Below are positions 115-5,930 of a stretch of 64,000 nt of DNA, piece after piece. This DNA comes from Vicinamibacteria bacterium (GTDB lineage: Bacteria > Acidobacteriota > Vicinamibacteria > Marinacidobacterales > Marinacidobacteraceae). Position 1 is the stretch's first letter; each line of letters opens with the position of its first letter. The stretch is taken from the NCBI GenBank assembly GCA_963422395.1, contig OY729431.1, positions 224,001 through 288,000 on the forward strand, written 5' to 3'. A model generated the notes under the pieces. The model had not been told where the DNA came from. It did not search any database and saw only the letters and a program-made list of their open reading frames with translations. The position numbers were made by a program, and so were the translations under genes.

Positions 115-1568
115 CCGGAATTCCGGGGAAGGAGAGCAACCAGATGAGTGAAGATCGGACGCCTTCGGCCGAAGGCGCGGCAGCCGAGAAGTCCGAAGCG
201 AAATCCGCCGGACCCGAGCTGCGGCGCACCCAGACGATCGCCGGTGCGGCGCTGCTGCTGACCGTGCTCGCCGCAGTGAGCGCCCCCCGAAACCCGGAAC
301 CGAGCGACTTCGTGGATCTCGGTGACCGGTTCTTCCCGGGCTTCGAGGATCCCGAGGAAGCCAGATCGCTCGAAGTCATCGAGTTCGACGAGGCTACTGC
401 CGAGGCGATTCCGTTCCGGGTCCAGAACGAGAACGGGATCTGGACCATCCCGAGCCATCACGACTATCCCGCCGACGGCAAGGACCGGCTGGCGCAGACC
501 GCCGCCGGGATCATGCTGCTCGAAAAGGACGATTTCCGCTCCGAGAATGTGTCAGACCATCCGGCGCTCGGCGTAGTGGATCCGCTCGACGAAGGCGCGG
601 TCTCGCTGGTCGGGCGCGGCCGGCGGGTCACGGTGAAGGGCAGCGGCGACCGGGTGCTCGCCGACCTCATCATCGGGCGGCAGGTCGAGGACCGCGAGGG
701 CGCCTACTTCGTTCGCGTTCCGGGCCAGAAGCGGGTCTATGTCTCGCAGCTCGGCGTGGACATCTCGGCCGAGTTCGCCGACTGGATCGAACGCGACCTG
801 CTGCTCATGGACCGGAACCGGGTGGAGGCGGCGGTTCTCGAGGACTACACGATCAACGAGCGGACCCTTCAGGTGGACCGGCGCGCCCGCCTGGAGTTGT
901 CTCGGGTGGATGGCGAGTGGACCGCCGAAGGTCTCGGATCCGACGAGGAAGTGGATTCCTTCGAGATGAACGAGTTGCTCCGGGCTGCCGACGAGCTGGA
1001 GATCGTGGGTGTCCGACCCAAGCCGGCGGGGATCGCGGCCACTCTCACCGGCGAGACCGCCGGGGTATCGAACGCCGACATCCTCTCGCTCCAGAGCCGC
1101 GGCTACTACCTCACCCAGGGCGGCAACCTGCTCTCGAACGAGGGGGAAGTCCGGATCGAGACCGATGAAGGAATCCGCTACACCTTGCGCTTCGGCGAAG
1201 TGCTGTACGGCCGCGGGGAAGCGGTGAGCGCGGGCGCTGCAACGCCGGAGGCCCGGACCTCGACGGGTCCCGCAGAGAACCGCTATCTCTTCGTGACCGC
1301 GGAGTTCACTCCCTCCCGCTTTCCCGAGCCGCCGCGCCCCCCGAATCGGGACTACCAGGACAAGCCCTCCGACGAACTCACCGACGCAGACCGCGAGAAC
1401 CGCGACCTCGGCCGCGCCTTCGACCGCTGGGAGGAGGATGTCCGGCAGGGCCGGGAACTCGAGGAGACGCTCACCCGCCGTTTCGCCGGTTGGTACTATG
1501 TGATCTCCCAAGAGAGTTTCGAGAACATCCGCAAGACCCGCGGCGACCTGATCCGCGACGAGTCCTGA
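111..1568 (+). CDS. DUF4340-like domain membrane-anchored protein
   Basis: N-terminal TM helix followed by segments typical of DUF4340 ([36 protein letters not shown]). Alternative start at ATG 144 after AAGGAG. Confidence 0.65.
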
Positions 1569-1629
1569 ATCCCGGCCCCCGGCCGAACCCCTTCCGGCGC
1601 CGTTCGGTCCGCCGTCCGAGCCGCGGATG

Positions 1630-3465
1630 TCACTCGGAACGCGCGGCCGTCATGAAGCGTGGCTTCCGTGAGTCGTCTCCCTTGATCAAAGCCTCGATTT
1701 CGCCGAGGTCTTCCAGAAACTCCTCTCTGGACACCTCCGTATAACGCCAGCAACTCAGTGTTGGCGATGCAGGTGTGGTCTCGATGGTTTGCCTCGAGAG
1801 GTGCAGGTTTTCTTCTGCGTTCTCGCTCTCGTCAACGGCCCAGGACGCTACTGCCAGACATTGAGAGAAGTTCGCCCCTTCGGTTTCGTTCTCCTTCGCG
1901 CGAGCCAACTCGACGACGCGTCGAAACGGCTCTTGCCGAAGCGTCCCGGTCGCTCCCCAAAGCGCCATCCCGTAATTGAACGCATCGACGATCGCCATGT
2001 CATCGACCGTACGTTCCTGCCGAGCCAGAAGCGCCACCGCTGCCTCGCACCGCCCTGAGCTGAGATACAAGAGACTCAGATTATGGATTGCGTGCCAGCG
2101 TGCAACCTCTGGCAGTTCGGAATCGTGCTCGATCGACTCCAGAATGGCTACCCCGACGTCCTTCTTGCCGCGTTTCCCGAGTTCGGCTCCCACGAATGAC
2201 CGGTCCATCGCGTCCAGCGATTGGATGCCGACTGTCTCGATGAGCGTCTCGACGGGAACTGCGGCCAACTCCAGAGCCTCCCTAACCTGCCAGGGGTGCG
2301 CGGAATCGCTCTCCAACACGCGCATTGCGTCTCGGGTCGCGCCTGCGGAGTCATCGTGTTGGGTGCGAGCCCGCGCCCGGTGCAGCAGCGCATCGGGCTC
2401 GCGGCAACCGATTTCGATCGCCCGGTCGAACAACCGCGCTGCATCTGTCTGCCGCCGCTGATCATCGTACAGTTCGGCGACCTGGTACAGAACCTCTCCG
2501 TCGTTGGCATGTTCCTTTTCGATCTGCTCGAGTTTCCGATCCCGATCCTGCGGAGAGTCGCGAAAAGCACTGCGATGCCAGCGAGGACGCCTGACCGAGC
2601 CACGTACATAGGACAGTGCGCCATCCCGATCGGAAAGGTTGCCGCTGACGATCTTCTCGATGACTGTTCGGTATTCGCTCGCAAGCCGACTCTTCGGGCG
2701 GTCCCGGATGAACACGGCCTGGTTCAGGAGTGCCAGGCTGTCGTACCGATGCACGATCACGGGATCGCGATCCATGGAGAGTTCTTTCCGAAATGCTTCG
2801 ATCTGCTTTCGGAGAATCTCGTCCTCGTCGTCCAGATCCGGCACGTTGGACATGACGAAGTGCAAGGCGATCTGCTTCTTCCGCGGCGTTTCGGCCTCTG
2901 CACGAATCTCGCGGACGACCTTGGTCAGGCCGCGCAGATTTTGTTCGTTGGGAAAGAAAACGACCACGACTGCATCGGGGAGCTGCCGCGTACAGACGCC
3001 TCCGGTGTCGGTATGCCCGGTTCGAGAATCGACCAGCACCCAATCTGCTCTGATGACTTTTTCCCACTGCGCTTTGAGATCCTCGAACAGTAGGTAGCCA
3101 TCGTGTTTTTCGTAGAGTTCAGCCCAGTCGATGTCCCGGAAACGCACTCCGTAGTCTCTCTTCTGCGAACCGGCCGGCATGACCCAAAGCCCACCCCCAT
3201 CCTGACCGGCTTGGCGCAACTCGTAGATGAATTCTGCTGCATCCGGCGCCTGGCCGGTTTCCAGGTATCGACGGACGAAGTCAACGATTCCGGGTGTCTT
3301 CTCAGTGGGGCGCAGCATTTCGAAGGACTCGAGGCCGGGAGCCTCCAGATCGAAGTCCACCGCGAGTACCCGTCGTCCCCGCTTCGCAAGATCCACCGCC
3401 GCGTTCACCATCGCCATCGTCCGGCCGACTCCTCCCTTGAACGAATAGAAAGTAGTGGTGTACAC
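1630..3465 (-). CDS. ParA/MinD-like P-loop ATPase (KGGVGR variant) fused to a TPR/helical-repeat region
   Basis: GTG start at 3465 after GAGGA; motifs TFYSFKGGVGRT, VDFDLEAPGL, VLVDSRTG, TRQLPD; C-terminal half has TPR-like repeats (EVLYQVAELY...AARLFDRAIE, DALLHRARAR). Confidence 0.8.
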   Translation of the reverse strand: MYTTTFYSFKGGVGRTMAMVNAAVDLAKRGRRVLAVDFDLEAPGLESFEMLRPTEKTPGIVDFVRRYLETGQAPDAAEFIYELRQAGQDGGGLWVMPAGSQKRDYGVRFRDIDWAELYEKHDGYLLFEDLKAQWEKVIRADWVLVDSRTGHTDTGGVCTRQLPDAVVVVFFPNEQNLRGLTKVVREIRAEAETPRKKQIALHFVMSNVPDLDDEDEILRKQIEAFRKELSMDRDPVIVHRYDSLALLNQAVFIRDRPKSRLASEYRTVIEKIVSGNLSDRDGALSYVRGSVRRPRWHRSAFRDSPQDRDRKLEQIEKEHANDGEVLYQVAELYDDQRRQTDAARLFDRAIEIGCREPDALLHRARARTQHDDSAGATRDAMRVLESDSAHPWQVREALELAAVPVETLIETVGIQSLDAMDRSFVGAELGKRGKKDVGVAILESIEHDSELPEVARWHAIHNLSLLYLSSGRCEAAVALLARQERTVDDMAIVDAFNYGMALWGATGTLRQEPFRRVVELARAKENETEGANFSQCLAVASWAVDESENAEENLHLSRQTIETTPASPTLSCWRYTEVSREEFLEDLGEIEALIKGDDSRKPRFMTAARSE

Positions 3466-3484
3466 AGGGAATCCTCGTCGAGTC

Positions 3485-4021
3485 TCAGGCATCTCTGAGC
3501 TGGTAGGCGCTCTGTTCGACCTGGAGCCGGTGGATCTGCCTGGTGTCGAGTACGCGGAAACGCGGACGCCGGCCGGCCGTCGGGGCATCCGGTTCCGCAT
3601 CCAGTTGCCGCAGCGTCCAGATGTTGTCGGCTGAATAGAGCAGCCGAAGATATCGGTCGTTCGCCTGGTTCTGGATAACGATGCCGTGTTCCCACCGGTG
3701 CAGGGTCGCTTCACCAAGGCCGGTGACCTCGGCGAACGCGGTGCGGGACAAGCCGTGGCGGTCCCTGATGGAACGCACTTGTCGGGGCGTCAGCAAGCCG
3801 TGATGTATGCAGACCGCCTCATGCTTCAGCCGTTCCGCCTCATGACCAAGAGACGCGGCGCTGCACGACACGCAGACCTCGACCGGGATACGGGCGCTCA
3901 ACTCGGTGGCGGATTCGTCGGCACCATAGGTGAAGGTGTAGTCGGACCACTCCGTGCGAACCGGTGCGCCGCACTCGAAGCAGGCGTCGGGCATCGTGGA
4001 TGCTTCGCTGCCAGATGTCAT
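3485..4021 (-). CDS. MqsA-like antitoxin (zinc ribbon plus XRE HTH) with a C-terminal extension
   Basis: CFEC...CVSC zinc ribbon, then LLTPRQVRSIRDRHGLSRTAFAEVTGLGEATLHRWEHG HTH; ATG at 4021 overlaps the upstream TGA (ATGA). Confidence 0.85.
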   Translation of the reverse strand: MTSGSEASTMPDACFECGAPVRTEWSDYTFTYGADESATELSARIPVEVCVSCSAASLGHEAERLKHEAVCIHHGLLTPRQVRSIRDRHGLSRTAFAEVTGLGEATLHRWEHGIVIQNQANDRYLRLLYSADNIWTLRQLDAEPDAPTAGRRPRFRVLDTRQIHRLQVEQSAYQLRDA

Positions 4022-4383
4022 GGTGCATCGTCTCCCTTTCTCTTGTCGGAATAGTGGAAGCTGCGCCCCCAGATGCGCCCGGAGAGCAGTTCCACCTTCA
4101 CATAGAGCCGCGGCCGGTTCACCTCGAGAAATATCTTCATCACGTATGCAGCGGCTCCCTCCGGCCGCCGCAGACAAATGACTTCCACCTCTTGCCTTTC
4201 CTCGATCCGGGTCGCGATGAGATCCCACGCACCGGCGTCAGTGAACGGAAGCCCGCTGTCCGGGCTGATCACGGTCTCCGGACGCCAGTTGGTCGGACGG
4301 GTCGGCGTGGAATGCGATTTCCGTGATCGAGGGCGGCGGGCGAGGACGGCGATCTGCCGGCGGACTTCTTCACGGATCACCAC
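4018..4383 (-). CDS. Putative MqsR-like ribonuclease toxin
   Basis: 121 aa, translationally coupled upstream of the MqsA-like gene; C-terminal LYVKVEL...RSFH resembles the LYxK...SFH end of MqsR/RelE-fold toxins. Confidence 0.6.
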   Translation of the reverse strand: MVIREEVRRQIAVLARRPRSRKSHSTPTRPTNWRPETVISPDSGLPFTDAGAWDLIATRIEERQEVEVICLRRPEGAAAYVMKIFLEVNRPRLYVKVELLSGRIWGRSFHYSDKRKGDDAP

Positions 4384-4638
4384 TAGGGATATCTATCATG
4401 TGAGAGATAGCTCCACATAAATAGTTCAACAGAATTTGAGATTCTATCAAATGATCGTGTATTGCGACGCAACGCGACTTGGCTTGGGTTCTCACCGGGG
4501 CGCCATTCGGACCGATGGAACGCCGGTCTCCCGGGCAACAGGCCGTTGGGAGAAAAGCGCGTCATTTGTTTTCAAACGATGATTTAGCGTATGTGATATT
4601 GGACATTCAATGCCATACCGTTCCATATTTCATCTTCT
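4384..4638. promoter_or_regulatory. AT-rich divergent promoter region with operator-like palindromes
   Basis: Markedly AT-rich against the GC-rich background; inverted repeats CTATC-N8-GATAG (4393-4410) and ATTTGA-N7-TCAAAT (4434-4452); lies between two divergent TA operons. Confidence 0.55.
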
Positions 4639-4977
4639 ATGCCGTCCCGCCATGATGCGTCGCTGCCGCTCCCAGTGCTCCCCATCCTCCGAAAGCTGGG
4701 CGCCGACCTCCGCGATGCCCGCCGCCGCCGCCGCATCCCCACCGCGCTCATGGCCGAACGGGCCATGCTGAGCCGAACCACCCTCCACCGGATCGAACGC
4801 GGGGATCCCGGAGTCGCTCTCGGCAACTACGCGAGGGTTCTCTTCGTCCTCGGTCTCCACCGGCGGCTCGGCGATCTCGCCGATCCGGGGCAGGATGTCG
4901 TGGGCCTCGACCTGGAAGCGGAGCGCCTGCCGCAGCGCATCCGCCTTCGCGATCACCTGTTCGACTCGGAGGGGTGA
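4639..4977 (+). CDS. XRE-family HTH protein, HipB-like antitoxin
   Basis: LRKLGADLRDARRRRRIPTALMAERAMLSRTTLHRIERGDPGV HTH; directly upstream of a hipA-like gene. Confidence 0.85.
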   Translation: MPSRHDASLPLPVLPILRKLGADLRDARRRRRIPTALMAERAMLSRTTLHRIERGDPGVALGNYARVLFVLGLHRRLGDLADPGQDVVGLDLEAERLPQRIRLRDHLFDSEG

Positions 4978-4979
4978 CG

Positions 4980-5793
4980 ATGGATCGCCGGGTCTTCCTG
5001 TACTGCGGCCGCGGCGACTTCGACGAACCGATCGGACGCCTGTGGCTACGGGTTCGCCGGGGCCGGGGCCGGGGAACCGCTTCCTTCCAGTACGACCCCG
5101 GCTGGCTTCGGCATCCCGACCGCTTCGCCATCGAACCCGTGCTCGAACTGGGTCCAGGCGCGCACCACACCGAAGCCGGGCAGGAGTCGTTCGGAGCGTT
5201 CAGCGATTCGGCGCCCGATCGTTGGGGGCGAATGCTCCTGCAGCGCGCCGAGCGGCGCGACGCCAGGAACGACGGGCGGACGCCGCATCCCGTTTCTCTC
5301 CGCGATGACCATGCTGGGAGCGAGGGACCGCGAGCCGCGCTCCTACCCCGAAATCGCCGACGCCCTCCGCCGCTACGGCGCGGCGCCTGCGGCCGACCTG
5401 AAGGAGCTCTGGCGACGGATCGTTTTCACCGTGCTGATCTCCAATCGCGACGACCACCTTCGCAACCACGGGTTTCTCCGCCGCGGCGCCGGGGGATGGC
5501 GCCTCTCCCCCGCCTACGACCTGAACCCCGTCCCGGCGGACCTGGGCGGCAGGAATCTCACCACCCCGATCCGCTAGGGGGACGACCGGGCGAGCCTCGA
5601 GCTCGCCCTCGAGACGGCTTCGTACTACGGCCTCGCCGCCCGCGAGGCCCGCGAAATCACCCGCCGGGTGGCCGACGCGGTCCGTGGATGGCGCGGGGAG
5701 GCGGCGTTCGGCGGCCTCGGACGAAGCGAACAGGACCGCATGGAATCGGCTTTCGAACACCCCGATCTGCGCCGCGCAACCGCCCTCGGCTAG
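4980..5793 (+). pseudogene. hipA: HipA-family kinase toxin pseudogene (internal deletion with frameshift, plus premature amber stop)
   Basis: The N-terminal part (ASFQYDPGWL, FSDSAPDRWGR) jumps near 5285 into another frame carrying RIPFLSAMTMLG, ISNRDDHLRNHGF and WRLSPAYDLNP; TAG at 5575-5577; HipA-like sequence continues in frame to TAG 5791-5793. Confidence 0.85.
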
Positions 5794-5930
5794 CTGTGAT
5801 CTTGTCGTAGGTTGTTCACGCGAGCCCGATGCCCGAAGCTCATGGGCATCCACGCCCCTCAGCACAAGGAGCAACCCGCAGGAACATCATCGCTCGTCTT
5901 CCCCCTGAGCAACATGGTGATTTTGCACAG
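5794..5930. mobile_element. Putative MITE/IS remnant, 137 bp, flanked by a CTAG duplication
   Basis: CTAG|CTGTG...CACAG|CTAG; 25-nt imperfect terminal inverted repeats (13/25 identical); internal hairpin GATGCCC-N9-GGGCATC. Confidence 0.5.

Follow-up and report, generated by a model that had tools for sequence, protein, structure and literature searches.

What part does an ATPase play when it is encoded directly behind a toxin and its antitoxin? The question is raised by three co-oriented open reading frames (ORFs) on the minus strand, positions 1630–4383, of a 64,000-nucleotide stretch of DNA from a Vicinamibacteria bacterium (assembly GCA_963422395.1, contig OY729431.1, positions 224,001 to 288,000), the whole of which is referred to here as the window. 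In order, they encode a toxin of 121 amino acids (aa) (4018..4383, GTG start), an antitoxin of 178 aa (3485..4021) and an ATPase of 611 aa (1630..3465, GTG start), which joins a ParA/MinD domain (aa 1–275) to a tetratricopeptide repeat (TPR)-like solenoid (about aa 280–600). The initial annotation of the locus put this combination forward as a candidate new one; however, ternary toxin-antitoxin (TA)-ParA systems with a ParA-TPR protein and MqsR-MqsA are already present in the main text of a preprint (Li, Burroughs and Aravind, bioRxiv 10.64898/2026.10.19.760177, October 2026). What appears to be new is a C-terminal tail of the antitoxin, predicted to dock on the ATPase and to make the antitoxin ParA-dependent.

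Judged by gene order across genomes, the three-gene operon is real and conserved. Counted from the ATPase side, matches to both toxin and antitoxin stand directly upstream on the same strand in all of the best 80 of at least 571 confirmed GTDB matches, some of these partners being broken and five of the loci repeating ones from a set of relatives. Full-length ParA-TPR proteins are encoded at 65 of these 80 loci, 60 of them with a toxin that is intact by profile coverage, and the upstream partners rule out chance adjacency of the three genes. The same arrangement is found for 7 of 7 near-full-length ATPase homologues among 40 relatives and at 4 of 4 full-length IMG/VR loci. From the toxin side, a sample of 401 genomes from the phylum of the window yields the toxin in 9, each with both partners; among metagenome loci that extend 800 nt or more downstream, 46 of 57 have both partners (3 of 3 for viral loci). 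Linkage to the TA pair in other genomes, for which the initial annotation proposed a neighbourhood search, is thereby borne out, as is its description of the layout in the window, where toxin and antitoxin share a stop/start overlap (ATGA) and a 19-nt gap holding a Shine-Dalgarno-like GAGGA (3472..3476, minus strand) separates antitoxin from ATPase.

The body of the antitoxin has the anatomy of MqsA, namely four zinc cysteines in a CxxC...CxxC domain followed by an XRE-type helix-turn-helix (HTH). These cysteines (C14, C17, C50 and C53) are invariant among 90 sequences; the family models TIGR03830 (53 bits, NCBIfam cut-off 61.8) and PF15731 (25.1 bits, Pfam cut-off 30) score below cut-off and HTH_3 above it. 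Beyond this anatomy the protein continues for about 45 residues, closing with the tail motif, a predicted ParA-docking and degron element (residues 152–178; 3488..3568, minus strand). Among the antitoxins a variable linker leads into F-R-x-L-x6-8-R-x-x-Q-x-x-F-x-L-R-x-A-A, which in the window corresponds to F155-R-x-L...Q-x-x-[F/Y]173-x-L175-R, with F155, F173 and L175 conserved in at least 90% of sequences. AA or VA C-termini are found in 44 of 89 antitoxins, as against 1 of 89 ParA proteins and 41 of 1486 ORFs of the genome. Both ClpX and ClpP are encoded in this genome (93.8% complete), in which SecB was not found.

Presence of the tail follows presence of the ParA gene. When a tail profile built from GTDB loci only was applied to metagenome antitoxins, scores above 0 were obtained for 43 of 51 ParA-linked and 0 of 12 ParA-less antitoxins, some of the metagenome loci being near-copies of the GTDB loci behind the profile. 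Counted over all loci (156 distinct units, with 11 contig-edge units left out and L230 removed from the ParA-less count), the tail is present in 121 of 129 units whose ParA domain is open and missing from 11 of the 12 ParA-less ones. Two candidate broken ParA genes, L091 and L113, were rejected, as their indels are in frame. In the sole tailed unit among the ParA-less ones (L082), an insertion sequence (IS), IS4, separates the antitoxin from ParA, and the toxin is broken. At L083, a stop codon interrupts ParA, the tail is kept and the toxin is broken, while at L125 a stop codon just before the tail accompanies a ParA frameshift and an intact toxin, its sister loci L127 and L130 being intact. 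These three natural lesions fit a dependence of the antitoxin on ParA.

A model of the complex between the ParA-TPR protein and antitoxin residues 141–178 reached an ipSAE of 0.70, compared with 0.00 for the best control. Of 157 solved complexes, 116 reach the mark applied, as do 2 of the 215 mismatched pairs. At least 87% of contacts recur between separate runs, with a partner pLDDT of 70–71. In this model, tail residues 152–176, basic and amphipathic, lie on the ParA surface against residues 71–76, 114–136, 153–161 and 193–195, a patch made up of the helices preceding Walker B together with the one that follows switch II. What is probably the equivalent surface in NifH holds the FeS cluster and shifts along with switch II. 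The predicted core of the patch (3058..3126, minus strand) comprises W114, Y118, G123-Y124-L125, E128-D129 and Q133. Conservation of residues P74, Y124, L125 and D129 is 86–96% in the TA-linked clade; they match in none of the 15 other KGGVGR ATPases compared, with which this clade has the catalytic core in common. For the site of contact, the initial annotation had looked to the TPR region; binding there was rejected because the model puts the tail on the ParA domain and because the tail is kept at TPR-truncated loci. At 12 of 12 such loci, with most or all of the TPR half lost, ParA domain and tail are both retained, with an intact toxin in 8. The tail thus probably docks on the ParA domain, a binding which the model supports.

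The ATPase itself carries the Walker A sequence FKGGVGRT, matches NF047398 with 170.1 bits (cut-off 90) and, in Foldseek, retrieves NifH, Soj, FlhG and MinD at E ~1e-6, as expected of a ParA/MinD/NifH fold. Among 90 sequences R15 and P43 are invariant and G44 nearly so, giving an Arg for the Walker A Lys and a PG motif. Residues from about 280 to 600 are nearly all helical (AlphaFold2 (AF2) pLDDT 92.4); Pfam TPR matches in this half fall below cut-off, and the family profile matches consensus-TPR structures. Mean column conservation is 0.40–0.51 in the TPR half versus 0.56–0.87 in the ParA domain, with F496, W503 and W573 kept invariant in the former. At the very C-terminus (1633–1680, minus strand) a conserved SCWRY...F..D...I.G....P.F caps the TPR half, and the R-x-P-R-F within it looks like the opening of the antitoxin tail of close relatives, a possible mimicry. 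The deviant KGGVGRT ATPase with TPR-like helices is therefore as the initial annotation described it, and its assignment of the other two genes also agrees with the results, by MqsA anatomy for the antitoxin and by an MqsR-like fold for the toxin.

The toxin was not matched in Pfam, NCBIfam, PADLOC or PDB sequences, and MqsR family models match neither the window toxin nor any of 133 homologues. Its family comprises 496 representatives at 50% identity. For the AF2 model (pLDDT 88), the best structural match is MqsR (PDB 3hi2; Z 9.5, root-mean-square deviation 2.3 over 87 aligned residues), at 10% identity to the E. coli protein; the next match has Z 5.1, and RelE-type toxins make up much of the remaining list. 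The structure check suggested for the toxin was thus divided in outcome, as Foldseek returned nothing at E 0.001 or better, with MqsR at probability 0.92 and a non-significant E of 0.25. Conserved residues are Y94, K96 and GRSFH at 106–110. For E. coli MqsR, toxicity is attributed to K56, Q68, Y81 and K96 (PMC2791442), and by conservation and a plausible position, Y94 and H110 plausibly correspond to MqsR Y81 and K96. From fold and family knowledge, we infer that the toxin would be an MqsR-fold, mRNA-cleaving RNase.

Upstream of the toxin lie two near-palindromes, each two mismatches from TATCATATGATA. Site 1 (4445..4456) is a match to the ATCATATGAT family motif and site 2 (4394..4405), 11 nt before the toxin start, has two mismatches to it. 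With up to two mismatches allowed, the ATCATATGAT palindrome occurs in 106 of 140 distinct upstream regions compared with about 1.1 expected from mononucleotide shuffles, for a motif picked after sighting in a few loci. The two sites are likely an autorepression operator; we take the operator to differ in sequence from that of MqsA. Of the AT-rich promoter with palindromes in the initial annotation, the palindromes and the AT-richness stand (the upstream gap, 4384–4630, has 46.6% GC), and a consensus promoter was not found in a sigma-70 scan of the minus strand.

The reading proposed here is that this TA-ParA ternary module works in the manner of toxin-antitoxin-chaperone (TAC) systems, with the ParA-TPR ATPase taking the place of SecB in protective docking and signal-dependent release, a proposal whose chances we consider evenly balanced. 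The MqsA-like zinc domain would bind the toxin and the antitoxin HTH would repress the operon at the palindromes, while the C-terminal tail docks, as modelled, on the conserved patch of the ParA domain. In the resting state docking would shelter an aggregation- or ClpXP-prone tail, leaving the antitoxin 'addicted' to ParA. When the TPR half, the more variable one, catches an invader signal, the nucleotide or dimer state of ParA may change; release of the tail would expose the antitoxin to ClpXP, and with the antitoxin lost the RNase would be freed to halt translation, resulting in abortive infection or dormancy. A role in defence is suggested by analogy with MqsRAC, by the preprint and by the more variable TPR half. 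The idea of the initial annotation that the ATPase fills a third-partner slot and acts on the antitoxin gains support from tail/ParA co-occurrence and from the complex model.

Several results weigh against this reading. The tail scores below threshold in 8 of 129 ParA-linked units, the all-locus profile has many sequences in common with the set it was scored on and is partly circular for positives, and on the antitoxin tree (a quick tree of 130 columns) the ParA-less state changes four times, of which starred branches force only one. Co-occurrence could accompany any interaction and is compatible with control in either direction. The complex was folded as a ParA monomer with a 38-residue fragment, on alignments made for this analysis, and clade-specific residues occur outside the patch too (P172 is matched in 2 of 15), so that patch conservation gives weak support. 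AA/VA ends are missing from 45 of 89 antitoxin homologues; the window antitoxin ends in DA, not AA, which makes the degron step doubtful for this copy. The toxin is damaged at 4 of 12 TPR-truncated as against 5 of 65 full loci, and the truncated loci may simply be decaying. At L185, tail and intact toxin are found with a ParA that breaks after codon 28, in a locus that may be chimeric. As to defence, neighbours of the module are mostly housekeeping genes: among 125 ORFs scanned (of 148 selected nearest ORFs, by crude ORF calling at E 1e-15), 3 matched defence-type genes, 4 matched IS and 79 had no match, and a defence-island context was not evident.

Control could also run the other way. If the TA pair were stable alone, an activated ParA might grab the tail and pull the antitoxin off the toxin or to a protease, a trigger-only switch of the kind proposed in the main text of the preprint (bioRxiv 10.64898/2026.10.19.760177). 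The linkage, the conservation of the tail and the modelled interface would be the same, and L185 would fit. Loss of ParA should then be harmless and tails should persist; yet they are absent from nearly all ParA-less units (11 of 12), and the two clear tail-keepers with ParA uncoupled or stopped, L082 and L083, have broken toxins. We regard such a switch as unlikely.

The distribution of the module is relevant to another view. ATPase-side loci span about eight phyla by record titles, and the module is seen in Acidobacteriota, Binatia, Gamma- and Alphaproteobacteria, Spirochaetia, Latescibacterota, Omnitrophota, Gemmatimonadota and Planctomycetota. It is patchy, sits at unrelated insertion sites and has its phyla intermixed on the antitoxin tree, which together fits horizontal spread. 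Complete copies lie on plasmids of Rhizobium gallicum (pRgalR602b) and Massilia forsythiae, with the toxin unannotated there; no match was found in 50,697 phage records. Patchy spread to many unrelated sites beside housekeeping genes, the plasmid copies, the low GC of the locus and the invariant F496, W503 and W573 would all suit a selfish addiction or stabilising module without phage sensing, retaining a mobile islet or plasmid or reporting stress on ATP or protease load. This leaves unexplained why a 330-aa TPR half, more variable than the ParA domain, is kept, and the related TAC system MqsRAC is antiphage; we consider it rather improbable. Peptides can activate ParA/MinD, and the basic, amphipathic tail on the ParA surface in the model might instead be a MinE/ParB-like regulator of the ATPase, with ParA polymers as main effector and the RNase as back-up. 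The main text of the preprint argues for a multimerising ParA effector in other systems (bioRxiv 10.64898/2026.10.19.760177), but itself treats TA-ParA as a switch, and neither the AA/VA ends nor toxin damage where ParA is uncoupled would be explained, making this very improbable.

Protective docking of the tail on ParA may extend beyond the present family. We tentatively suggest, at somewhat less than an even chance, an 'ATPase addiction' in which a portable C-terminal docking and degron tag, a counterpart of ChAD and SecB, ties antitoxins to KGGVGR ParA proteins, could be grafted onto unrelated antitoxins and may be a general means of control in ConB2 systems. A possible graft is found on a Polymorphobacter plasmid (L216:7091-9842), where the same ParA-TPR clade follows an unrelated gene pair; the product of the second gene closes with a tail similar in appearance, which is absent from its E. 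coli plasmid homologue of 187 aa. This tail gives 0.4 bits on the tail profile and is a by-eye lead. The upstream pair, a small gene and an HTH gene, looks HicA/HicB-like by eye, without Pfam support, and two HipA modules lie downstream. At L227 and L231, helical or winged-HTH partners encoded upstream of other KGGVGR ATPases have unstructured tails that terminate in AAA or AAS and contain V-x-x-F motifs resembling those of some antitoxin tails; to judge from these, docking by a tail may be a general property of ConB2 systems.

Other tails and ATPases of related loci may be recorded here. L120 and L121:4001-7013 carry the same TA family with a divergent KGGVGR ATPase lacking the GY-x-x-x-ED patch; their antitoxin tails are without the F/F motif, yet end in VAA. 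In a ParA-less antitoxin (L116:4339-5154) the tail is replaced by an additional C-terminal domain, about 100 aa long. FxsC-like upstream proteins at L204, L205 and L206 share a C-terminal tail rich in proline and glycine (P-x-x-x-x-G-P-G/S-like), encoded immediately ahead of the ParA gene. At L095:3234-7163 and L112, tandem toxin-antitoxin copies whose antitoxins are tail-less, along with a ParA fragment, come before a copy that has the tail and a ParA without TPR, which suggests repeated insertion and decay at one site. The genome of the window (G000:C1, about 1,491,600–1,493,400; L199) encodes a second ATPase of the KGGVGR type, extended at its N-terminus, behind a small gene that is HEPN-like by eye, a layout resembling, also by eye, HINPO in the main text of the preprint (bioRxiv 10.64898/2026.10.19.760177).

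The operon lies in an islet of the window. GC content is 61.1% at the locus versus 68.4% for the genome, a value as low being found in 24 of 1056 equal-sized genome tiles, in agreement with the lower GC reported initially. The locus is not an assembly artefact, because single contigs from 3 of 4 public runs span positions 500–4387 with 0–1 differences (the fourth run yielding pieces); an empty-site joint across the operon was not seen in the four runs. Beside the operon (4630–5577, plus strand) lies a divergent HTH gene with a broken hipA, consisting of an N-terminal piece followed by a C-terminal fragment in another frame, the middle missing; together these are a decayed HipBA module. The right edge of the islet (5807–5854) holds a short repeated element, with contig depth 2–4-fold higher and matching pieces on other contigs.

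The module is small, has a scorable RNase output and natural knock-outs, and is available in the cultured non-pathogens Rhizobium gallicum and Massilia forsythiae, while the specific predicted contact of tail residues F155/F173 with ParA L125/D129 makes the question of an ATPase switch directly testable. ParA domains with the Arg-P-loop (KGGVGR) turn up repeatedly, in many predicted conflict systems. If the tail is ChAD-like, partner addiction has evolved twice in TA systems, to a chaperone and to a sensor ATPase; if ATPase addiction holds, a nucleoside triphosphate (NTP)-gated, TPR-sensed toxin release would unite TAC and NLR-like logic.

Among domain libraries, NF047398 and PADLOC PDC-M28B match the ATPase, the latter over aa 3–220 only, and neither library matches the toxin. 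Searches of the literature, with most subscription journals outside coverage, gave no relevant paper for KGGVGR or PDC-M28 and no further description of this system. With E. coli MqsR-MqsA (PDB 3hi2; PMC2791442) the locus shares the toxin fold, the four-cysteine zinc domain with C-terminal XRE-HTH and, by way of the palindromes, a probable binding to its own promoter. It differs by low sequence identity, by family scores that are nil or under cut-off, by the extra tail and by the third gene.

Compared by the main text of Li, Burroughs and Aravind (bioRxiv 10.64898/2026.10.19.760177), a computational study, every feature examined fits and the locus is a member of the TA-ParA class. In those systems TPR is the commonest fusion partner of ParA, MqsR-MqsA is among the BECR toxins of subtype iii, the ConB2 signature is an Arg for the Walker A Lys with a PG motif after sensor-1, and ParA is proposed as a toxin-releasing switch. 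Correspondingly, a type II TA pair and linked ParA stand in conserved order at this locus, the ConB2 residues are present (PG motif D37-F-D39-L-E-A-P43-G44), a TPR-like C-terminal half is the putative sensor (Pfam TPR scores being below cut-off), and a BECR-fold toxin is paired with an HTH antitoxin. That main text does not contain 'degron', 'ClpX' or 'protease', and has 'tail' once, for phage tails; the tail-docking mechanism was not found in it, figures and supplements apart, or in the other literature searched.

With TAC systems (MqsRAC, CmdTAC, HigBAC), the locus shares the order toxin, antitoxin, partner. The ChADs of these systems are tails with a pair of aromatic/basic stretches and a terminal VA or AA that serves as a ClpXP degron, and two-gene homologues lack them (PMC5105189; bioRxiv 10.1101/2024.02.24.581848); the antitoxin extension here likewise carries two such stretches, is lacking in two-gene homologues and often ends in AA or VA. 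The partner, in contrast, is a 611-aa ParA-TPR ATPase and not a SecB-like chaperone, and the tail is conserved in sequence across phyla, unlike the ChADs compared in PMC5105189, which have no significant similarity to one another. The preprint, in its main text, calls TA-ParA 'entirely distinct' from TAC, whereas the tail evidence at this locus points to a TAC-like arrangement.

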